DNA of 64,000 nt from a bacterium (GTDB lineage Bacteria; RBG-13-61-14; DATKZS01), in assembly GCA_963674965.2 (NCBI GenBank), contig CAXXFL010000001.1:1120001-1184000 (forward strand), in the 5' to 3' direction. The position numbers and the translations under genes are program-made. Position 1 is the stretch's first letter. The number at the start of each line of letters is the position of its first letter. Under the pieces are notes generated by a model. It worked only from the letters and a program-made list of their open reading frames with translations, was not told where the DNA came from and made no database searches. This document shows positions 5,636-26,836 of this stretch, piece after piece.

Positions 5636-8278
5636 TCAGTTGGGCTCGAGGGTAAGATGGTAAGCGGCCTCGGCCTTGACCCTCTCCGGGTCCATGGTCG
5701 CGGTGACGTACTCGCCGTTGACGTACATCTCGTGCATGTCGCGGTAATGGGGCGAGAGCCACTGCCCGGACTCGGAGCCGTCGATAATCATGAGCGCGTT
5801 GTCCGGGTCTCCCATGTCCATGATGTGTCTCAGCACCGGTCCGCCCATGGTCTTCCAGGGGTTCTTGCCGAAGCCGGCCGTGCTCGCGTTACGAACGGTC
5901 TGGTCCGCGCCCAGGTGCGGATATGGCCCGACGGAAAGCTCGGAAAGCGGCCCCCACCCGAGCGGATGATACCACTTGATGGTATGCAACTTGCCCCACT
6001 CGCGGCTCGAGGGGTCCTTACCGTACTTCTTCTCCACCTTCTTCATGGCGTCGTGAAGAGACTTGACGATTATATCGTTCGCGTCCTCGACGACGTCCCC
6101 GGTGCGCTTGTCGTCGAAAAAGGGAGACTCGCCGGCCTCGACCCACATGGTCACCGCGTCGTCAAGACGGCCGCCCGCCAAAAATGCCTTGTAGTCGCGA
6201 GCGGGCATCTCGTCCTCCAGGGTGTTCCTTCTCAGCTCCTTGATGAAGGTGAAAAAGATGGACGGGGCCGTCGCGTCGTGATCGGCCATGAAGTCCCAAT
6301 TCCTCAGTTCCTCGGCGGCCTTTAATACCAGCTCGTCGTCGGGCGACTTGGCCTCGACCGCCTTAAGTATATAGGGGACCTCCCACTCGGCCCGTTTTAC
6401 CAGCACGTCATTCTGAATCCTGACCATGTCGTCCACGTCGAGCGGCTTTAGCTCGTCGATCAACTCCTCGATCCTCCATGCCCTCCAGCCGTCCCCATAG
6501 TTGGTGGCGAAGACGTAAGGATACCACTCCGCGTCGACCACCTCGTTGTTGGCCGTGACCATGAAGCCGCGTTCGGGATTCACGGCCATGGGCAGCTCGT
6601 TCACCGGGATAAACCCGGTCCAGTCGTATTCTCCCGTCTCGCCCGGCGCCGGCATGACGCCCAGGCCCTTTTTCCGTATCGGTACCAGGCCGCCCGGCAC
6701 GTAGGCGATGCGTCCGTCCGCGTCGGCGGCGACCCAGCTCTGGTTGGGCACGACCAAAAGGTCCATGGCCTCGATGAAGTCGTCCACCGACTCGGCCGCG
6801 CACAGCTTGTTATACATGGCCGCGAAATGCCGTATCTTCACGTTCTCCCGCGGGATGGTCCTGAACTTGACCATGAACTCCTCGACGCTTTTCGAGCTCA
6901 CCGCCGCATGGAAAACCTCGAGGTTGGTATCGAAGTCCCATCCCGTCCAGCGCATGGCGATGGGGGGAGTACCGCGGGGAAGCTTGCCCGCTATATCGTT
7001 GATGATCGGGCCGTGTACGCTGTGCCTTATCTTAACCACCCGGTTTTGCGTCCGCGACCCAACCCTGACCTTAATAATCTCCTCCCTCACGGTGAAGGGC
7101 AGCCACTGGCCCTTGTAGCGATACATGCCGGGCCGGTCGGGGCTGGTCGTCTCGATGAACAGGTCCTGCACGTCGGCGGCGGTGGTGGTGGCGCCCCACG
7201 AGAGCTTGCGCGTGTGGCCGAGAACGGGGTAGGGACTGAGAGGAAAGGCCACGCCATAACAGTCGAACTTGCCGCCCTTGATCCGCATCATGTAAAAGAG
7301 CGAGGGCTCGATATGGGCCAGGTGCGGGTCGTTGCACAAGATGGGAGAGCCTTTCTCAGTGAGCTTGCCCGACACCACCCAGTTGTTCGAGGCCAGAGGA
7401 TAATCGTGATGAAAGAAGCTTTTGATGGCAGAGTCGGCCAGGAGCAGGTCGAAGGCCGCGTCGGCGGAAAGAGGCAGGTCGTATCCCAACTCCTCGCTGG
7501 AGGGGGCCCCGCCGGGTGGAAGGTCCCTGGGACTATCGAGCCCGTTCCGCAGTATCTCGGGCGGCACGATGGTCGGTCCGGGCGAATAATGGAGCGGCAA
7601 TAGTTTCCATCCCAGCTCGGGACCGTACTTCTCGAACAGGCCGTACCTTAAAAGCTCGAGGTCCATGTTCGCCGCCAGCATGCTTCCGATAAACGCGCCC
7701 AGGCTGGCCAGGTCGGCGACCCGGAAGGGCTCGGGCTTCAGCCTCAGCACCTGGAACTCGAGGGGTAGCTCATCCCAGCTCTCGTGGGTCCTTATATACT
7801 CGTTGGCCCCCTCGCAGTAGGCGTTCAAGAGGTCGTAATTCTCGCGGTCGACCTCTCTTAGCATAGCCTCGCCCATCTCGCCCACCCACTTGAGACCCAT
7901 TATCCGCTGCCTTTTGTCCATCTCGAAAGTCCGGAGGGAAAAGCCGCTGATGCCTTGTCCCGGCACTCCCAGGTCCCCGAAAATCTCGGAGAGCCTTCCC
8001 TCGGCGATGGCCCGGAGCAGGGTCATCTCCCAGAGCCTGTCCTGGGCCTGCACGTATCCCACGGCGTAGAACAGGTCGCGCTCGTTGTCCGCGAATATAT
8101 GAGGAACGCCGCGCTCGTCGCGATATACGTTGACCTCCTTTTGCAGGCCCGACATGGACAGGGTCCCTTCATACTGGGCCAGGGGCGGGTCCTTTTCGTA
8201 TTTTCTGGCGGCCGAATAGCACCCGGCGAACGCGAAAAGCACGACAAGGGCGAGGGCCCGCTTTTGTTTCCAAGGCAT
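5636..8278 (-). CDS. Penicillin acylase / peptidase S45 family Ntn-hydrolase lipoprotein
   Basis: Lipobox FAGC; GVPHIFA, AQDRLWEM, ASNNW (catalytic Ser), NDPHL, TANN and GESG..SPHY.D motifs. Confidence 0.93.
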   Translation of the reverse strand: MPWKQKRALALVVLFAFAGCYSAARKYEKDPPLAQYEGTLSMSGLQKEVNVYRDERGVPHIFADNERDLFYAVGYVQAQDRLWEMTLLRAIAEGRLSEIFGDLGVPGQGISGFSLRTFEMDKRQRIMGLKWVGEMGEAMLREVDRENYDLLNAYCEGANEYIRTHESWDELPLEFQVLRLKPEPFRVADLASLGAFIGSMLAANMDLELLRYGLFEKYGPELGWKLLPLHYSPGPTIVPPEILRNGLDSPRDLPPGGAPSSEELGYDLPLSADAAFDLLLADSAIKSFFHHDYPLASNNWVVSGKLTEKGSPILCNDPHLAHIEPSLFYMMRIKGGKFDCYGVAFPLSPYPVLGHTRKLSWGATTTAADVQDLFIETTSPDRPGMYRYKGQWLPFTVREEIIKVRVGSRTQNRVVKIRHSVHGPIINDIAGKLPRGTPPIAMRWTGWDFDTNLEVFHAAVSSKSVEEFMVKFRTIPRENVKIRHFAAMYNKLCAAESVDDFIEAMDLLVVPNQSWVAADADGRIAYVPGGLVPIRKKGLGVMPAPGETGEYDWTGFIPVNELPMAVNPERGFMVTANNEVVDAEWYPYVFATNYGDGWRAWRIEELIDELKPLDVDDMVRIQNDVLVKRAEWEVPYILKAVEAKSPDDELVLKAAEELRNWDFMADHDATAPSIFFTFIKELRRNTLEDEMPARDYKAFLAGGRLDDAVTMWVEAGESPFFDDKRTGDVVEDANDIIVKSLHDAMKKVEKKYGKDPSSREWGKLHTIKWYHPLGWGPLSELSVGPYPHLGADQTVRNASTAGFGKNPWKTMGGPVLRHIMDMGDPDNALMIIDGSESGQWLSPHYRDMHEMYVNGEYVTATMDPERVKAEAAYHLTLEPN

Positions 8279-8364
8279 GTTTCCCTCCTATGCTGGTTTT
8301 TTAGCGAAACGAGACGGGACGGACGCGCGAACGAATCCGGTCGTGAAGCGGCGCTAATATCCGC

Positions 8365-9582
8365 TTACTCGCCGCAATCGAGCGGCACGTTGAATATCGA
8401 GACCGTCCCGGCCTTGTCGCCGGTGAGGATAAGGTCTATGTGGGCGTCGGCGCATCCCTTGGCCTCGGCGGAGAAGGTATAATCCACGCCGGCGGGAAGC
8501 GAAAGCTGGTATTCGCCCTTTGGGCCGCTTTCCACGCGGGTCACGATTTCACTTTTCCCTTTTTCCCTGACCAGGATGACCGCTCCGGACAGGGGCATGC
8601 AGGTCGTGAGGTCGCCTTGATCGAGGTCCCGCGGCTTGCAGGATTTTTTATCCACCACCTGCCCCTTGACGGAATGCATGGCCTGGTTCGACAGCTCGAG
8701 GGGTATGGCCACCGAGTAAATGTCCTCCAGGCCGTACCCCCCGGACCTGTTGCTGGCCAGATAGGCCAGGTCGCCCGAGGCCGGGATAGTAAAATAGATG
8801 TCGGCCATGGGAGTATTGATTATCTTGCCCATGTTGACGGGCTCGGAAAACTTGCCGTCCGCGAGAATGGAATAGAACACGTCGAAACCGCCCAGGCCCC
8901 CGTGTCCGTTCGAGCTGAAATAAAGCGTCTTTCCGTCCTGGTGCATCATCACGTGCAGTTCGTCGTCGGGCGTATTGACGGGCTCCTCGAGCCTCTGGGC
9001 GGGGCCCCACTTGCCGTCTTCAAAGTAGGACGCGAAAATGTCGAAGTCTTTTTTCTCCGTTCCTTCCCTGGGCCTGTCCGAGACAAAGTAAAGACTTTTC
9101 CCGTCATGGGAAACGGAGGCGTTCGAGTCCTTATAGATGGAATTTATCTCGGGTCCCATCCGCTCGACGTCGGCCCAGGGCTTGTCGGGGGACTCCCGCC
9201 TGGCGGTAAAGATATCGCAGATACCCGGCTGCTCAAGCTGGTCGCACCTGGTGAAGTACATGGTTTTCAGGTCCACGGAAATCGAGTCGGGCCCCTCGTG
9301 GTACTTGGTGTTGATCGGCGCTCCCAGGTTGACGGGCTCGGTCCATTGCCCATCGACCCTTCGCGAGGCCCACACGTCCTGGTTGCCCAATCCTCCTTCC
9401 CGGTCGGAGGTGTAGTAAAGCCAGTTGCCGTCGGCCGTGACTATTGGCCCGAAGTCGGAGTCGGGAGAATTGACGAGGGGCCCCAGGTTAACCGGCTCTT
9501 GTCCGAGGGCCGAGCCGGCGGCCCATAAGGCGAATAAAAAGACGAGTGAGCCGACGGTCCAGGGAAATGCAAAATCTTTCAT
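8365..9582 (-). CDS. PD40 (WD40-like) beta-propeller protein with carboxypeptidase-regulatory-like domain, no OmpA domain
   Basis: Signal peptide; repeated NLGP.VN..D..P....DG..LYF.SDR.GG.G..DI units; C-terminal V.GQVVD..PLSGA..G.Y.L.L. Confidence 0.85.
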   Translation of the reverse strand: MKDFAFPWTVGSLVFLFALWAAGSALGQEPVNLGPLVNSPDSDFGPIVTADGNWLYYTSDREGGLGNQDVWASRRVDGQWTEPVNLGAPINTKYHEGPDSISVDLKTMYFTRCDQLEQPGICDIFTARRESPDKPWADVERMGPEINSIYKDSNASVSHDGKSLYFVSDRPREGTEKKDFDIFASYFEDGKWGPAQRLEEPVNTPDDELHVMMHQDGKTLYFSSNGHGGLGGFDVFYSILADGKFSEPVNMGKIINTPMADIYFTIPASGDLAYLASNRSGGYGLEDIYSVAIPLELSNQAMHSVKGQVVDKKSCKPRDLDQGDLTTCMPLSGAVILVREKGKSEIVTRVESGPKGEYQLSLPAGVDYTFSAEAKGCADAHIDLILTGDKAGTVSIFNVPLDCGE

Positions 9583-9641
9583 CGCTCGTTCCTTTCCTTG
9601 CTCCGAGGCGCTCGAGCCCGCCGAGCGCCGCGCAAAGCGCC

Positions 9642-9674
9642 AATAAAAAGCGCGCGACCCCCTATGACCGCGCG
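9642..9674 (-). terminator. Rho-independent terminator after the AMIN-LysM gene
   Basis: Minus strand GCGCGCGG-TCATAGGGGG-TCGCGCGC followed by TTTTTATT. Confidence 0.6.
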
Positions 9675-9695
9675 CCGGCTCGATGTTATATCAAA

Positions 9696-10865
9696 CTAGC
9701 GTACGGGTACCCTGATAATGACGTTCGTGCCCAGGATGACCGCCCCGTCGCTCCTTCTAATGTCCTCCAGTTCCCTCTTGGTAAAGATATCGCGGTTCGC
9801 CGCCAGCAGCCTGGACCAGGCCTCGGGGTTTCCGTAATGCTTGTTGGCCACGTCCCGCAGGCTCTCGTTGGCCCCCGTCCTGTACTCGGTGAAGTTAAAT
9901 CCGCCGGGCACGTACTTGGCGTCGATTACGGTAACCACAACTCCCGACCTGGTTAGGCTCACGTCGTAGGCGGTAAGTTTTTTCAGGTTTATGACCACCC
10001 TTGTCTTGTCGTAATGCTGTCCCACCTTGATGCTCTTGACGCCGGCGAAGGACAGGTTATAAACGCTCTGGGAGGTGGCGTCACCCAGCCCGGGAAAATC
10101 CACGACGATTCGGGGGGGCCGGCTAAGGTCGAAGTCGACGAAGTCCCGAACCCTTCCGTTGGTCAGGATGAGTATTTGAAGGCCGTCCTCGATGGTGCGG
10201 TAGAGGACGTCTCCCACCACCGTGGCCGATCCGCCGCCGCCGGGGCCGGGCATCTGGACCAGCATGGGCGAATACTGGGAGGTGGCCTTGACCTGAGGAG
10301 AAGCCGCCACCCTGGCCGGTCCTCCCGGCCCGTAGGGCTGGGGAGGCGCGCCGGTCTCGAGACGGATCAACTCCTCCTTGGCCTCCTCGTAGGGAAGCGT
10401 ATCGTCGCCCATGCCCTCGTCCTTGCCCGTGGCCTCGAGGATAAGGGCCACCGAGCTCATCCTGTTGTCCAGGCGATAGGTCACGTCCCTCTTGACGTGG
10501 ACCACCACCCGGACCACGGGAACGGACATGGCCGTCAAAGGCCGGACCTCGACGTCGGTTATAAGGTCGGAGCCGCCCACGTTAAGCCGGTCCTGCATGC
10601 CGGACGCCATGGCCGCGGCCTTGACGTCCACGGCCACGACCCTTTCCTCCATGATGAAGGGATAGGCGTCCATGGCCCCGTTTCCAGTGATCAGGACCTG
10701 GTTGCCCTCGGGCACGGAGACCTCGGTCACCATCACCTCGGCGCCGGGCACGTAGCCCTCGGCGTCGGTGAAAATCGAGGAGTCCTTCTGGCAAAACGAC
10801 ATGGTCGCCGCGACCATGACAAGAAGCGCTATACCCGCCGCTTTCCGCGTAACCCAGTGATCCAT
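9696..10865 (-). CDS. AMIN-domain (x2) periplasmic/lipoprotein with C-terminal LysM-like domain
   Basis: PPRIVVDFPG..VKSIKVGQHYDKTRVVINL (AMIN); ESLRDVANKHYGNPEAWSRLLAANRD (LysM-like); N-terminal hydrophobic segment followed by Cys. Confidence 0.75.
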   Translation of the reverse strand: MDHWVTRKAAGIALLVMVAATMSFCQKDSSIFTDAEGYVPGAEVMVTEVSVPEGNQVLITGNGAMDAYPFIMEERVVAVDVKAAAMASGMQDRLNVGGSDLITDVEVRPLTAMSVPVVRVVVHVKRDVTYRLDNRMSSVALILEATGKDEGMGDDTLPYEEAKEELIRLETGAPPQPYGPGGPARVAASPQVKATSQYSPMLVQMPGPGGGGSATVVGDVLYRTIEDGLQILILTNGRVRDFVDFDLSRPPRIVVDFPGLGDATSQSVYNLSFAGVKSIKVGQHYDKTRVVINLKKLTAYDVSLTRSGVVVTVIDAKYVPGGFNFTEYRTGANESLRDVANKHYGNPEAWSRLLAANRDIFTKRELEDIRRSDGAVILGTNVIIRVPVR

Positions 10866-21761: not shown

Positions 21762-21795
21762 AAAAAGGCCCGGACGCCGTTGACGCCCGGGCCTT
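21762..21795. terminator. Terminator between convergent rsmB and porin genes
   Basis: AAAAAGGCCCGG-ACGCCGTTGACG-CCCGGGCCTT. Confidence 0.6.
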
Positions 21796-21811: not shown

Positions 21812-22978
21812 CTATATCGCCGGCGATAAGGAGACGTCGAAAAGGAACTGCATGTTGATGAAGAATATGTTGTCGTCCTGGTCGTCGGTAAAGTCGTTCA
21901 CCGTGTTTTTATCCACGTAGTTGGCCTGTATTCTGAAGGAGGGGGAAGGCGAGAAGTTGGCTCCGAAGGTCCAGTTTTTCTGGTCGGTCACGTCGCCGTT
22001 CTCGTCGAACTCGGATGAGAACTCGTCGTATCTTATTCCCAGCTCGAGTCTGTCGTCGAAAAAGGCCTGAACGACCTGTCCCCCGTATCCCTTATAGTCG
22101 TAGATATAGTTAAGGGCCACCCACAGGTCGTCCAGATGTCCCTCTCCGTAGAACCCGTAAATCCTGGTTCCCCAGGGAAGCTTCACCAAAAGATCGGCGC
22201 TCCAGGCTTCGCGGTCGATATCGAACACGGTCTTTTTGTCGTCGTAGAGCGCGTCCTCATGCTTGTTGTAGCTGTAATGGCCGCCCAGGGTGACCTCGGG
22301 AACCGCCTGCAGCTCGAGCCTGGCCCCGTAGAAGTATTCACCGAACTTGTTGGTGTAAAAATACTCGGGGCTTTCCTCGCCGCCCACGTAGAAGTTGCCC
22401 CCAATGCCGTTGGATATCATGAGGAAATAACGAAGCTGGGTCGCGTCGTCGTCCCCTATTTTTCCCTTGAAGGCCACGCCCATGTCGCGGTTGTTAGATG
22501 ACTGGGCCATGAGCAACGATATATATGGAGTGCGGGAAAGTGAATAGTCTCCCACCATCTTGGCGAAGGTCGTCCTGGTGATGAAGTCCAGGCCCTGATC
22601 GGGGGTGAGGACCTCGCCGGTCGAGGGTATCTTCATAAGACCCACGTAAAACCCCAGCCAGTCGGCCACGTGATATGCCCCCCAGGCGTCGATCACGTCC
22701 GTTCTTTCCTCGAGCCTCAGCTTGAACATGCCCTCGACCTTGCCGTCCGCGGTGAGGAAGTGAACGCCCAGCCGGCCCTGCTTGAAGTTGAAACCGCTGG
22801 CCTCGTCCACCGCCGGGTCGAGCGTTCCCTGCTGGAGCCGGCCGTTCTCGACCTGCTCCTGGACCACCCACCAGAAGTTGGCGTTGCCCGAAAGAGTGAC
22901 CATGGGACCATCCGATCCCAGGGCGAGGGCGGGAAATATAACCGCCGCCGCGATGGCCAGTATCGCCGTTTTTTTCAT
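21812..22978 (-). CDS. Outer-membrane beta-barrel porin, OprO/OprP (phosphate-selective porin)-like
   Basis: Signal peptide MKKTAILAI; F..KQGRL, DAW..Y, G..KIP..E, LDFITR and RDMGV motifs; amphipathic strands ending FINMQFLF. Confidence 0.75.
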   Translation of the reverse strand: MKKTAILAIAAAVIFPALALGSDGPMVTLSGNANFWWVVQEQVENGRLQQGTLDPAVDEASGFNFKQGRLGVHFLTADGKVEGMFKLRLEERTDVIDAWGAYHVADWLGFYVGLMKIPSTGEVLTPDQGLDFITRTTFAKMVGDYSLSRTPYISLLMAQSSNNRDMGVAFKGKIGDDDATQLRYFLMISNGIGGNFYVGGEESPEYFYTNKFGEYFYGARLELQAVPEVTLGGHYSYNKHEDALYDDKKTVFDIDREAWSADLLVKLPWGTRIYGFYGEGHLDDLWVALNYIYDYKGYGGQVVQAFFDDRLELGIRYDEFSSEFDENGDVTDQKNWTFGANFSPSPSFRIQANYVDKNTVNDFTDDQDDNIFFINMQFLFDVSLSPAI

Positions 22979-23124
22979 TTTCTTTCTCTCCCATCCTGAG
23001 GCGGAAATGGCAACCGCCGTCATGCCTCGCGCGAAGTCAAAGGCGCGCGGTCTTTTATGACGCTCGAACGTCGTCCCCGGAAGGCCCTTCACGGGCCCGC
23101 CGGGGACGTTTTCCGCGCGTGGAT

Positions 23125-24438
23125 TTATGGCGTCTGTATGCCGTAGCCGTAAAGAAGTATCTTGTTTTCCTGGATCAGGGCCCAGCCGCCGTTGTTGATG
23201 TCGAACTCCTCGCATCCCTCGGGCATGGGCATGACCCTGATAACGACCGCTCCCTTGGCCATGTCCCCGGCGTTATGGCACTTGCATTCGTCGTATGGAT
23301 AGGTATCGGCCTCGGTGCATCCCATTTTATCCTGATCAAGCCCCCAGTCCGGATGCATGACGTATTTGGGGTCAAGGGTATCGCTGCAATCGGAGTCCTC
23401 GAGGTTTGCCATCCACGGGGGAATGACGTTCCGGAAGGGGCCCTCGCCCCCTATCTTTCCGCTCGAGTCGTCCAGATAGGCCTTGTCCAGCAGGCTTCCG
23501 TCCCTCTCGTAGGCCAGGAGGTGCCACATCTCGTCCACGATGGTCTCGCCGTCGCTGTAGCCGTGGGTTTGGGCCGGGTAATCCACGAAGGCGCACTCGC
23601 CGAGGTCGTTGACTCCGAAGCCGTCGAAGAAGTAGCTGGGCGGGAACTGGTCGGCGATCTTATCCACGTCAAAGGTGAGGCTGTAGCCGTCGGGAGCGAC
23701 CACGTGAATTCCCTCGACGCCGGCGCCGTCCAGTTCCAGGTCCAGTCCGCCATAGTGCTTGATGAAGTCCTTCATGCGCACGCCCTTGTAGTTGGCGTAA
23801 TTGTCGAACTGCTGCTTCGAGGTGTTGGAAAGCAGGAACATATCGTACTTGGCGATGCCGGCGTCGTTTCTTACCTGGTTCAGGGTTACCGTCACCACCG
23901 GGCAAAGCGCCTGGCCGGGCATGCTGCCCGCGTCGCCCGGGTACTTGACGTCGTCTATCTCCTCGCGGTTGGTGAAGCCGTCGCCGTCGCTGTCGTTCTG
24001 GTCGATTTTAACCAGGGCGTTGAGGTTTTTTCCATTTAGCATGTAGTCCTTGCCGTACTCGTTAAGGGTTTCCCAGAAGGTGGTGGGAAGACCGAGCCAC
24101 CCATCCATGGGATGCTCGATGTAATGGCAGAAGGTGCAAACGTCGGCCTGGATGTCCTTATAGCCGCCGCCCTTGGGTTTTTGCACCACCCCGCTCTTAT
24201 GGCAGGTCTGGCAGTCGTCAAGACGCGTGCCGTAAACCCACGGGTACACCCTGACGAAGTTGTTGATGTCCGCGTCGCTGGCGTGGCCCTTGTACGCGCG
24301 CGACGAGAAGTTCCTGTCGTCCGCGTTGTCGTCGTCGTGGTCGCATCCCGTTACGACGATGAACGAGGCGCCCACGGCGAAACTCGCCACGATGAGCGCC
24401 GCCAAAGCGCCGCTTGCCGCTTTCCTTAGACAATCCAT
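23125..24438 (-). CDS. Diheme c-type cytochrome lipoprotein of the 'GEGP motif' family
   Basis: Start MDCLRK after CAGGAGGG; lipobox VTGC; CQTCH and CTFCH; DSDGDGFTN.EE; APDGY and GGEGPFR (resembles a molybdopterin-oxidoreductase-like domain); HNAG. Confidence 0.85.
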   Translation of the reverse strand: MDCLRKAASGALAALIVASFAVGASFIVVTGCDHDDDNADDRNFSSRAYKGHASDADINNFVRVYPWVYGTRLDDCQTCHKSGVVQKPKGGGYKDIQADVCTFCHYIEHPMDGWLGLPTTFWETLNEYGKDYMLNGKNLNALVKIDQNDSDGDGFTNREEIDDVKYPGDAGSMPGQALCPVVTVTLNQVRNDAGIAKYDMFLLSNTSKQQFDNYANYKGVRMKDFIKHYGGLDLELDGAGVEGIHVVAPDGYSLTFDVDKIADQFPPSYFFDGFGVNDLGECAFVDYPAQTHGYSDGETIVDEMWHLLAYERDGSLLDKAYLDDSSGKIGGEGPFRNVIPPWMANLEDSDCSDTLDPKYVMHPDWGLDQDKMGCTEADTYPYDECKCHNAGDMAKGAVVIRVMPMPEGCEEFDINNGGWALIQENKILLYGYGIQTP

Positions 24439-24525
24439 TTTACCCCTCCTGTTCTTCCCGACCCGGCGGACCGGGTCTCGCCCTTTCCAAAAACTGCCGC
24501 GCCTGGCCCAAAAAGGAGGGATCGA

Positions 24526-24556
24526 AAAATAATAAGGCTTCCCCCCTGGGAAGCCG
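24526..24556 (-). terminator. Second terminator-like hairpin in the leader
   Basis: Minus strand GGCTTCCC-AGGG-GGGAAGCC-TTATTATTTTT. Confidence 0.45.
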
Positions 24557-24571
24557 GCCACGCGACCCGAA

Positions 24572-24603
24572 TAAAAAAGCGGTTCCCCATAATGAAACCG
24601 CTC
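24572..24603 (-). terminator. Intrinsic terminator, expression platform of the riboswitch
   Basis: Minus strand GAGCGGTTTC-ATTATGG-GGAACCGCT-TTTTTAT, ~10 nt downstream of aptamer P1. Confidence 0.75.
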
Positions 24604-24612
24604 GACCTCGGG

Positions 24613-24722
24613 CCGCGCCTCCTTTCCAAGCATGGGGGGCCGCGAGGTTTCCCCCGCCGCCGAATGGCCGGCTCGCCATAGCCATTTCTCCAGCCTTAGG
24701 CGAAGCCGACTCGGAGACGAGG
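24613..24722 (-). ncRNA. Molybdenum/tungsten cofactor (Moco/Tuco) riboswitch
   Basis: Minus strand CCTCGTCTCCGAG TCGGCTTCG CCTAAG ... TATGG CGAGCCGG ... GCGGGG GAAA CCTCGC ... CCCCCATGCTTGGAAAGGAGGCGCGG. Hallmarks CUCCGAG, CCUAAG/UAUGG tetraloop receptor, GAAA tetraloop and UUGGAAAGGAG are present; P1 pairs 9 of 10. Confidence 0.88.
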
Positions 24723-24888
24723 AATATTTTATAAAAACGAGACAGAATAGTCAACAGCTTTGCGTCAATGACCGGCCGGTAAAGGGCGCCTACGAAGAAA
24801 TTTTTTAACAACGGGAATCTCGGGCTACACTAGTAAACGTAAAAGAGACCGGCCGTCGGCCGCGTCTACTCGTCCGCGGGGGAATGTT

Positions 24889-25633: not shown

Positions 25634-26836
25634 ATGTTCGTCGAGTTTTTTTACGAGTTAAAATCCAAGGGCGTGCCGGTTTCGCCCACTTCTTTCCTTC
25701 GTCTTCAGAAGGCGCTCCACCTGGGGCTTATCGAGTCGCTCGAGGACTTCTATACGGTCACGCGCTCGATCCTCGTGAAGAGCGAGCGTTTTTTCGATCT
25801 TTACGACCGGATATTCGCGTATTACTTCGAGGGAGTCGAGTTCAGCGACGATATAAGCCGGGAGCTTGAGGAGGCCATGCGTCCCCTTCTGGAGGAATGG
25901 CTCAAGGACCCCGAGGAACTGGCGGAGATGCTGGGCATGGACCCTGAGGACGTGCTCAAGCTTTCGCCGGAGGAGTTGGTCAAGTATTTCCTCGAGCGCC
26001 TCAAGGACCAGACCGAGGCCCACCATGGGGGCAACCGCTGGATCGGCACTCAGGGGACCTCGCCGGTGGGCCACTCGGGCAAGAACCCGCAGGGTATGCG
26101 GGTCGGCGGTTCCTCCGGCGGCAAGACCGCCGTCAAGGTCGCCCTCGAGCGGCGCTACAAGGACTACTCCGCGGGCCGGACCATCGGCAAGGCCGAGATG
26201 GGTGAGGCCCTCCGCTATCTTAAGGACCTGCGGCCCGTGGGCCCGAGGGACCAGGTAAACATCGAGGAAAGCATCCGGGCGACCTGCCGCAACGGGGGCG
26301 AGATCGACATCGTGTTCGACCGGGCCCTGCGCGACCGCCTTCGGGTGATCCTGATGATGGACAACGGCGGCTGGTCGATGGACCCCTTCATCGAGGTCTG
26401 CACCACCCTGTTCGCCTACGCCCGCAACCAGTTCAAGGAGCTTCATACCTATTATTTCCATAATTGCATTTACGACCGGGTATGGATCGATCCCATGCGG
26501 ATCAGGCAGCCCAAGAAGACCCTGGACTTTGCCAGGGACGACCCGGACTCGAGGCTGATAATAGTGGGAGACGCCTCCATGGCGCCCTACGAGCTTTTGG
26601 GCGCGGACGGCAGCATCTATTACCACGAGCGCCAGTCAAGGCCCGGCGTCAAGTGGCTCGAGTTCCTGGCCGATACCTTTCCCCATTCGGTTTGGCTCAA
26701 TCCCAAGCGAGAGATCACCTGGGAATACACGGAGGGAGCGACGACCATTTCCCATATCGGGAACGTCTTCCCCATGTTCGACCTGACCATCGAGGGACTC
26801 GAGAAGGCGGCGGCCAAGTTGAAAGAGAAAAATTGA
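25634..26836 (+). CDS. VWA-domain CoxE-like protein
   Basis: H.GGNRWIGT.GTSP.GHSG, MDNGGWSMDP, YFHNCIY, VGDASMAPYEL and WLNP motifs. Confidence 0.88.
   Translation: MFVEFFYELKSKGVPVSPTSFLRLQKALHLGLIESLEDFYTVTRSILVKSERFFDLYDRIFAYYFEGVEFSDDISRELEEAMRPLLEEWLKDPEELAEMLGMDPEDVLKLSPEELVKYFLERLKDQTEAHHGGNRWIGTQGTSPVGHSGKNPQGMRVGGSSGGKTAVKVALERRYKDYSAGRTIGKAEMGEALRYLKDLRPVGPRDQVNIEESIRATCRNGGEIDIVFDRALRDRLRVILMMDNGGWSMDPFIEVCTTLFAYARNQFKELHTYYFHNCIYDRVWIDPMRIRQPKKTLDFARDDPDSRLIIVGDASMAPYELLGADGSIYYHERQSRPGVKWLEFLADTFPHSVWLNPKREITWEYTEGATTISHIGNVFPMFDLTIEGLEKAAAKLKEKN

Follow-up and report, generated by a model that had tools for sequence, protein, structure and literature searches.

Introduction

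The genes controlled by the Moco (molybdenum cofactor) RNA motif, as listed in the accessible parts of Regulski et al. (2008; PMC2408646), serve cofactor synthesis, inner-membrane transport or cofactor-dependent enzymes, and a variant of the motif that lacks the P3 hairpin, representing 58 of 176 examples, is described there as almost exclusive to organisms and genes of the tungsten cofactor (Tuco). A second point of reference is PruR, which the accessible parts of its report (PMC11194511) present as a small, single-domain, secreted protein that resembles the sulfite oxidase (SUOX) fold without its ligand cysteine, binds pterins in the periplasm, is marked by a PW motif and a Tyr/Trp pterin sandwich, and regulates a diguanylate cyclase. 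Here we describe an operon, within a 64,000-nt stretch of bacterial DNA (GTDB lineage RBG-13-61-14; DATKZS01), in which a riboswitch of the first kind stands before genes for a diheme lipoprotein with a GEGP motif and for a porin of the OprO/OprP family. The stretch, termed the window and the source of all positions given below, covers positions 1,120,001–1,184,000 of the forward strand of contig CAXXFL010000001.1 (assembly GCA_963674965.2). The importers TupABC, WtpABC and ModABC begin in the periplasm, and in the open-access literature searched we found no description of an outer-membrane route for tungstate or molybdate. The same literature yielded no function for the GEGP diheme family, in agreement with an earlier note on this DNA that was made from the sequence alone.

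We conclude that the GEGP–porin pair very probably belongs to a regulon for molybdenum and tungsten (Mo/W) homeostasis, because two unrelated Mo/W controls, the riboswitch and TunR-like regulators, front it in different lineages, and because it has repeatedly been built into tupABC operons. On balance, we also favour the view that the operon, repressed by the cofactor, provides an outer-envelope front end for the acquisition of tungstate (or, more broadly, of Mo/W oxyanions), the substrate being suggested by the neighbouring genes and the riboswitch class.

Riboswitch and leader region

Scanning of the whole window with cmscan returned RF01055, the Moco/Tuco riboswitch aptamer, as the sole Rfam family above its gathering score (59.6 bits versus 36; E 8.8e-12), at 24603–24728 on the (−) strand and in an alignment spanning model positions 1–135, a full-length match. 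The earlier note had placed a Moco-class motif at 24613–24722, with an intrinsic terminator directly behind it; the terminator was found where predicted, and the covariance-model search that the note had proposed for the motif gave a significant result with the boundaries stated above. The alignment contains paired stems P1, P2, P4 and P5 and the GAAA tetraloop, and the conserved stretches CUCCGAG, GGAAAC and UGGAAAGGAG are unchanged over 12 aligned examples. At the P3 hairpin, 15 model positions are deleted, which places the aptamer in the Tuco-associated subclass, with the tungsten cofactor as its presumed ligand. No other RF01055 match was reported for the 6.5-Mb genome (150 of 877 candidates scored); a loose pattern of the aptamer core produced 44 matches on all seven contigs together, among which, by eye, only that of the window had the conserved 3′ core.

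Upstream of the aptamer there is a sigma-70-like promoter (TTGACT-17-TAAAAT; 24726–24754, (−) strand), recognized by consensus match only at 10 of 12 positions, whose 3′ end lies two bases inside the 5′ end of the aptamer match; two promoter-like sites were seen in the region, against 1.1 expected from shuffles. The expression platform is an intrinsic terminator (24567–24603, (−) strand; hairpin 24603–24577 plus T-run), the 10-pair stem of which begins at the last base of the RF01055 match, and a second, weaker terminator-like hairpin of eight pairs follows in the leader (24526–24555, (−) strand; hairpin 24555–24536 plus T-rich tail). The 5′ arm of the first terminator and the 3′ strand of P1 share no bases, and when P1 was forced the aptamer stems and the terminator coexisted at −74.3 kcal/mol, compared with −76.9 kcal/mol for the unconstrained fold. 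Because the terminator is compatible with forced P1, ligand binding should permit termination, and the folds therefore predict an OFF switch. In the best fold of a transcript truncated ahead of the terminator's 3′ arm, the P4-region sequence GAAACC paired with GGUUUC of the terminator 5′ arm, a pairing that represents a possible, weak antiterminator. The minimum-energy fold of the leader also has a long-range pairing of CGCGGCCCGA with UCGGGUCGCG (24557–24618, (−) strand) that brackets the first terminator. In one metatranscriptome, two short, near-identical pieces (23442–23647 and 24283–24518) cover parts of the lipoprotein gene and leader; these are contigs that carry no strand, level or ends and could stem from DNA carry-over, and are at most a weak hint of transcription; gaps in their cover carry no information.

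Homologous loci and their neighbours

With one genome sampled per species, 141 stretches encoded a homolog of the GEGP lipoprotein, and the best 80 loci were kept. They derive from Krumholzibacteriota, Eisenbacteria, Myxococcota, Acidobacteriota/Aminicenantes, Poribacteria, Latescibacterota and others. In 52 of these loci the gene immediately 3′ of GEGP encodes a porin homolog, and in at least seven of those that lack one the contig ends less than 900 nt from GEGP. With a covariance model built from 12 RF01055 matches, and Rfam as confirmation, 11 of the 80 loci were found to carry the riboswitch (13 matches at E ≤ 1.4e-11, one being the window aptamer itself), and all 12 matches in those 11 loci were above the Rfam gathering score. 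Two further sites upstream of GEGP, in L014 and L041, had come from the loose aptamer pattern and were dropped, neither being recovered by the covariance model at E ≤ 1.

The riboswitch-bearing loci differ in their layout. In L043, which is of the same family as the window, the riboswitch is immediately upstream of the GEGP–porin pair, and promoter, aptamer, 10-pair terminator, a span of ∼100 nt and ribosome-binding site come in the same order as in the window. In L037, riboswitch, TupA-like gene, permease, ATPase, GEGP and porin follow one another on one strand, whilst in L038 and L040 the order is riboswitch, Kelch-repeat protein, GEGP and porin. The Kelch-repeat protein, a beta-propeller of ∼550 aa (L038:1637-3325, L040:1977-3608), is a third operon member missing from the window. 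The remaining seven loci, all from Aminicenantes/Acidobacteriota, carry riboswitch-tupABC-moeA-moaC on the strand opposite to GEGP, at a distance of 1.3–1.8 kb in six and ∼4 kb in L066, with dus between them where annotated. Outside the 80, L109, of the same class as the window, has a promoter and a riboswitch directly upstream of GEGP, and the scan of its leader did not detect a terminator. The GEGP homolog of L109 (G051:C52:10435-11489) is split into two frames of 271 and 161 aa, maybe through a frameshift or an assembly error.

RF01055 was also searched for in the genomes of relatives (40 loci in 39 genomes, 61 candidates scored per genome). For the genomes of L038 and L040, which belong to the same order as the window, two matches each were reported, one leading the Kelch–GEGP–porin operon and the other located 108 and 134 nt, respectively, upstream of a TupA-like gene. 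L043 likewise has a second riboswitch that leads a TupA-like operon. With riboswitches upstream of both importer and pair, the same sensor class governs the two in one cell. The second L043 operon (L043:8638-12900), convergent to GEGP–porin, consists of riboswitch, TupA-like protein, methyltransferase, CdhD/4Fe-4S protein and MobA-like transferase, and a CGGC-domain protein is encoded between the two riboswitch operons. SAM-dependent methyltransferases (Methyltransf_31/11/25) recur either adjacent to the pair or within the TupA-like operon that a riboswitch leads (L005:9544-10251, L006:8475-9098, L009:8481-9164, L010:8434-8994, L053:7248-7910, L071:8621-9355 and L043:11071-11766).

A census with representative queries of Mo/W genes within 6 kb of GEGP gave, over the 80 loci, a TupA-like binding protein in 17, TupB in 14, MoeA and MoaC in 10 each, MoaA in three and the AOR cluster in six. 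TunR-like regulators (HTH_17 plus PBP_like) were counted in 21 of the 80, a label verified by Pfam for both domains in three of the 21; NCBIfam was used to check eight cluster members chosen ahead of the census, seven of them among the 21. TunR-type regulators, which are said to have this domain architecture, reportedly respond to tungstate. Together with the 11 loci positive for RF01055, at least one Mo/W feature or riboswitch was present in 40 of the 80 loci. As a genome holds one or two such genes per several megabases, we estimate, by judgement and not from a computed test, that chance would account for well under one locus in 80. An uninterrupted row of AOR, moaA, moaC, a small HTH_1 protein, GEGP, porin, TupA-like and TupB genes was seen in L035 (L035:694-9383) from the Myxococcales.

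TonB-dependent receptors were found in nine of the 80 loci, all from Acidobacteriota, where one or two of them replace the porin beside GEGP (e.g. L053:3335-5710, and L070:3401-5692 with 7449-9878); four of these loci also encode FecCD/Peripla_BP_2. GEGP lies between two receptors in L067, L070 and L081, and DUF364 occurs in two of the nine loci. A search of these nine loci and L061 found no Rfam families.

The genome from which the window comes encodes an operon of TupA-like (246 bits), TupB and TupC proteins 148 kb from the riboswitch operon, as well as moeA-moaC, moaA, modA and four AOR-family genes; neither the TunR-like family PF12727 nor canonical SUOX (PF00174) was found in it. No Rfam riboswitch was found upstream of its tupABC, its moeA-moaC or two of its AOR loci, and the only cofactor riboswitch detected in this tungsten-using genome thus serves the lipoprotein–porin operon. 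Among this genome and the 40 relatives searched, AFOR_N and a TupA-like gene were found in each of the six that match GEGP strongly, compared with a background of 19 and 15 of the 41, respectively. We do not count this co-occurrence as independent support, as a single class, in which every member carries these genes, supplies five of the six.

The diheme lipoprotein

The first gene of the operon (23125–24438, (−) strand) encodes a protein of 437 aa with a lipobox ending at C32, a diheme c domain with CxxCH motifs at 76–80 and 101–105 and a DxDxDG motif, and a SUOX-like C-terminal domain that bears APDGY at 248–252 and GEGP at 331–334. Its score for NCBIfam NF041762 (GEGP motif-containing diheme protein) is 375 bits, where the cut-off is 300, in an alignment of residues 48–433 with profile positions 1–358 of 359; it exceeds no Pfam gathering score. 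The earlier note had recognized the lipoprotein, its two CxxCH motifs and the APDGY/GEGP domain correctly. NF041762 comprises 608 proteins at E ≤ 0.001 among 8000 candidates scored, from many uncultured phyla. At least two CxxCH motifs are present in 120 of 121 family proteins and G[EN]GP in 118 of 121. In an alignment of 38 members with 42–52 % identity to the window lipoprotein, both heme sites (C76/C79/H80 and C101/C104/H105), G331, G333, P334, R336, M393, C282, C374, the DxDxDG-type motif and the APD, PD and HNA motifs are invariant, with E332 kept in at least 90 %. N205, Q209, D212, Y214, R312 and H388 are likewise invariant. One longer fused form (793 aa) was uninformative. Two proteins, P0118 and P0090 (499 aa), carry precomputed Pfam matches to PF18962 and/or PF13860 at the C-terminus; if PF18962 is, as we take it to be, a type IX secretion sorting domain, the GEGP protein would sit on the cell surface in some lineages.

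The AlphaFold model of the lipoprotein (mean pLDDT 84.6) was compared with solved structures. The top Foldseek rows were PruR pterin-binding proteins and sulfite oxidases or dehydrogenases, with E-values all above 0.001. VIA-align against 48,161 representative chains gave ten top matches with Z from 8.3 to 11.0, all of the SUOX fold and all to model residues 178–405: SorA 2blf (Z 11.0; root-mean-square deviation (rmsd) 2.2 over 123 residues), SoxC 2xts (10.6), SorT 4pw3 (10.4), PruR 7kp2 and 7rkb (10.2), chicken sulfite oxidase 2a99 (10.1) and 1sox (10.0), nitrate reductase 2bii (9.6), YedY 1xdq (8.6) and Thermus sulfite dehydrogenase 8s5s (8.3). The next unrelated fold had a Z of 4.9. With hhalign, a profile of eight PF00174 domains from genomes of relatives aligned over 93 columns (probability 87.6 %, E 3.5e-6). 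Clear SUOX matches came only from VIA-align and hhalign, as single-sequence and profile searches against solved structures gave nothing meaningful for the lipoprotein, and PF00174 was absent from its Pfam matches at E ≤ 1. The model thus indicates that residues ∼178–405 have the SUOX cofactor-binding fold, a result that is new here and in line with the earlier note, which had proposed comparison with the sulfite-oxidase/MsrP fold.

The cysteine that binds molybdenum in SUOX enzymes is not conserved, whichever aligned position is considered. In the hhalign alignment its column falls on S207, where none of 38 family rows has cysteine. At position 204, the putative equivalent according to the start offsets of the structural alignments and the numbering of the ligand cysteines, 120 family proteins have A in 91, S in eight, C in eight, G in six, V in four, M in two and F in one. 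By eye, GEGP-x-R resembles the SUOX consensus HGFPLRLVVP; the profile alignment ended short of this stretch, and we did not count the resemblance.

These results bear on the question of whether the lipoprotein is a periplasmic Moco- or Tuco-dependent oxidoreductase, a fused counterpart of SorAB or SoxCD to which the porin would admit an anionic substrate. The exclusively SUOX-type top ten, the PF00174 profile alignment and the invariance of both CxxCH motifs, which would suit electron transfer, all speak for such an enzyme, and the nearby AOR genes and TunR-like regulators would fit a metal-dependent one. In the accessible parts of Regulski et al. (2008; PMC2408646), moreover, two P3-less motifs precede putative sulfite oxidase genes in Syntrophomonas wolfei. 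The lack of a conserved ligand cysteine at either candidate position and the lack of a PF00174 match speak, however, against it. Furthermore, the leader looks like an OFF switch, and in L037 the pair shares one riboswitch with tupABC, so that the enzyme would be made when its cofactor is missing. We therefore regard an oxidoreductase as unlikely. Independently of this question, the Syntrophomonas wolfei case may be a Gram-positive counterpart, with a SUOX-fold protein under control of a tungsten riboswitch.

PruR offers a second precedent for the same fold (Z 10.2 for 7kp2 and 7rkb), being cysteine-less and, in the accessible parts of its report, a binder of periplasmic pterins (PMC11194511). 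By analogy, the pair might scavenge an external pterin, i.e. molybdopterin, cyclic pyranopterin monophosphate or Moco/Tuco itself, with the lipoprotein as the binder and the porin or a TonB receptor as the channel. Repression by the finished cofactor would make sense for such a system, and the nine loci in which TonB receptors flank GEGP, four with FecCD/Peripla_BP_2, have equipment of the kind used for large organic ligands. To our knowledge, no bacterial uptake of these labile compounds is known. The strongest operon links are, moreover, to tupABC and to TunR-like PBP_like regulators and not to a pterin transporter, the genome can make the cofactor with its own moaA, moaC and moeA, and scavenging leaves the two hemes unexplained; we consider it an improbable function, less probable in our estimation than catalysis.

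The porin and the end of the operon

The second gene (21812–22978, (−) strand) specifies a protein of 388 aa with a signal peptide. Its assignment in the earlier note as an OprO/P-like porin holds, given a match to Pfam Porin_O_P (PF07396) of 31.5 bits against a gathering score of 20.9, over residues 57–380 and profile positions 21–370 of 370. The predicted structure (pLDDT 88.8) has 16 strands, and the highest query-normalised TM values were for OprP 2o4v (0.66) and OprO (0.65), within a general match to trimeric 16-strand porins. Five arginines (R69, R164, R220, R256 and R316) are invariant in 30 porin orthologs and, as candidate pore residues, would suit an anion channel; in the OprO/OprP family an arginine ladder confers specificity for anions (phosphate). 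Prediction of a complex between porin and lipoprotein scored 0.00, which gives no verdict and is evidence neither way.

A heme lipoprotein gene that adjoins an outer-membrane barrel gene, as in 52 of the 80 loci, could also specify a minimal porin–cytochrome conduit for extracellular electron transfer, which the riboswitch would merely couple to anaerobic metabolism. We judge this to be very improbable: there are only two hemes, the 16-strand barrel has the size of a general porin, and the gene context is Mo/W metabolism and not respiration. A barrel of 16 strands is too narrow for a cytochrome, unlike the 26-strand MtrB type.

Directly 3′ of the porin stop codon, in the 53-nt gap to the convergent gene rsmB, a 10-bp hairpin (21793–21767) followed by five T (21766–21762) forms a putative operon-end terminator (21762–21793, (−) strand). 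It was read from the sequence and was not listed by the pattern scan for terminators; it accords with the earlier note, in which the porin gene ends at a terminator. The operon is flanked by housekeeping genes, for an HldE-like adenylyltransferase domain, a metal-dependent hydrolase, rsmB, a phosphatase-like protein and mazG. An open reading frame of 400 aa beside the operon (25634–26836, (+) strand) is without matches in Pfam (E ≤ 1e-4) and in NCBIfam (E ≤ 1e-5).

Discussion

The earlier note had offered two readings of this operon, an OFF-switched envelope module for the acquisition of molybdenum or tungsten and a new molybdo- or tungsto-protein, and had made both depend on a covariance-model match and on an association with Mo/W genes among homologous loci. 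Both were found, and the survey of neighbourhoods that it suggested did turn up riboswitch, porin and tupABC-type genes around GEGP. Judged by gene context and fold, the envelope module is the better of the two readings, because L037 has the pair in one operon with tupABC, led by a riboswitch. The molybdo/tungsto-protein fits less well because the Mo-ligand cysteine is not conserved.

On the reading that we favour, a front end of tungstate acquisition, transcription would begin from the promoter that precedes the aptamer. When cofactor (the tungsten cofactor or Moco) is plentiful, it would bind the P3-less aptamer, the terminator at 24603–24577 would form and transcription would halt; when it is scarce, pairing of the P4 GAAACC would compete with the terminator 5′ arm and both genes would be transcribed. 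The porin would then provide a selective path for oxyanions through the outer membrane, toward the TupABC importer encoded elsewhere in the genome. The lipoprotein, presumably anchored beside the porin, would employ its cysteine-less SUOX-like pocket and two c-type hemes in the capture or redox processing of the environmental metal species, or else of its pterin-bound form. The pocket may hold an oxyanion or a pterin, and the hemes may act on metal in reduced, thio- or complexed form, whilst the TonB-receptor loci of Acidobacteriota hint at a bulkier ligand.

Several observations weigh against this reading. Half of the loci (40 of 80) have no Mo/W feature within 6 kb and 28 of the 80 have no porin next to GEGP; as the 80 include related lineages, the counts in favour are, furthermore, not independent events. 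In the window's own genome, tupABC and moeA-moaC have no riboswitch, leaving co-regulation with the importer unsupported there. The TupA-like proteins score 209–260 bits for NF041772, below its cut-off of 400, and the genome also has modA, so that the oxyanion may be molybdate instead of tungstate. TonB receptors with FecCD/Peripla_BP_2 hint at a chelated or organic ligand, which they would suit better than a free oxyanion. Simple passage of an oxyanion needs neither two hemes nor a cofactor-type fold, which an enzyme or a pterin binder would explain too. Finally, the proposed antiterminator is weak, with a 6-bp GAAACC/GGUUUC core seen in a thermodynamic fold only.

With its links to the riboswitch, to TunR-like regulators and to tupABC, the widespread GEGP family can now be tested as a candidate for the first step, so far missing, in the acquisition of tungsten, and the fold tells us where to look for the ligand of the lipoprotein. 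More speculatively, and with greater doubt than we attach to the front-end role as such, bacteria of anoxic habitats may have a dedicated outer-membrane pathway for tungsten, in which the cysteine-less, SUOX-fold diheme lipoprotein captures or redox-converts tungsten species (e.g. thiotungstates or complexed forms) and hands them on to an anion porin (in Acidobacteriota, a TonB receptor instead), the whole being governed by the level of tungsten cofactor. If this holds, it would be the first system for tungsten uptake through the outer membrane, and the SUOX fold would gain a third function.

In comparison with known systems, the window riboswitch resembles the P3-lacking ('Tuco') class of the Moco RNA motif in its full-length match, the absence of P3, its intrinsic-terminator platform and its tungsten-using genome. 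It differs from the examples in the accessible parts of Regulski et al. (2008; PMC2408646) in that it controls an outer-membrane porin and an uncharacterized heme lipoprotein, and so extends the list of genes under this class. TupABC and TunR-type regulators, the most frequent neighbours of GEGP (17 and 21 of the 80 loci for TupA-like and TunR-like proteins, respectively), are not homologs of the pair, and neither is encoded in the window. The porin shares its Pfam family and 16-strand barrel model with OprP and OprO of Pseudomonas aeruginosa (2o4v and 4rjx), and several of its arginines are invariant among its orthologs; it differs in having 14 % identity, with other general porins equal by E-value, and in a regulation that points to tungsten or molybdenum and not to phosphate. 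MtrAB-type porin–cytochrome conduits, in which a cytochrome of about ten hemes runs inside a large barrel, are further removed from two hemes and 16 strands. The lipoprotein has both CxxCH motifs and the GEGP of NF041762, a family that is otherwise a name only. With SorAB (2blf), SoxCD (2xts) and 1sox it has in common the fold (Z 10–11, rmsd 2.2–2.3 over 121–129 residues) and an attached heme c module; unlike these, it has no conserved Mo cysteine and no PF00174 match, is lipid-anchored and carries its hemes in the same chain. PruR (7kos, 7rkb and 7kp2), prominent among the top Foldseek rows, likewise has the SUOX-like fold minus the ligand cysteine, whereas the GEGP proteins have an additional diheme domain and are encoded alongside a porin and Mo/W genes; they add to the SUOX fold a cysteine-less, heme-fused branch beside PruR.

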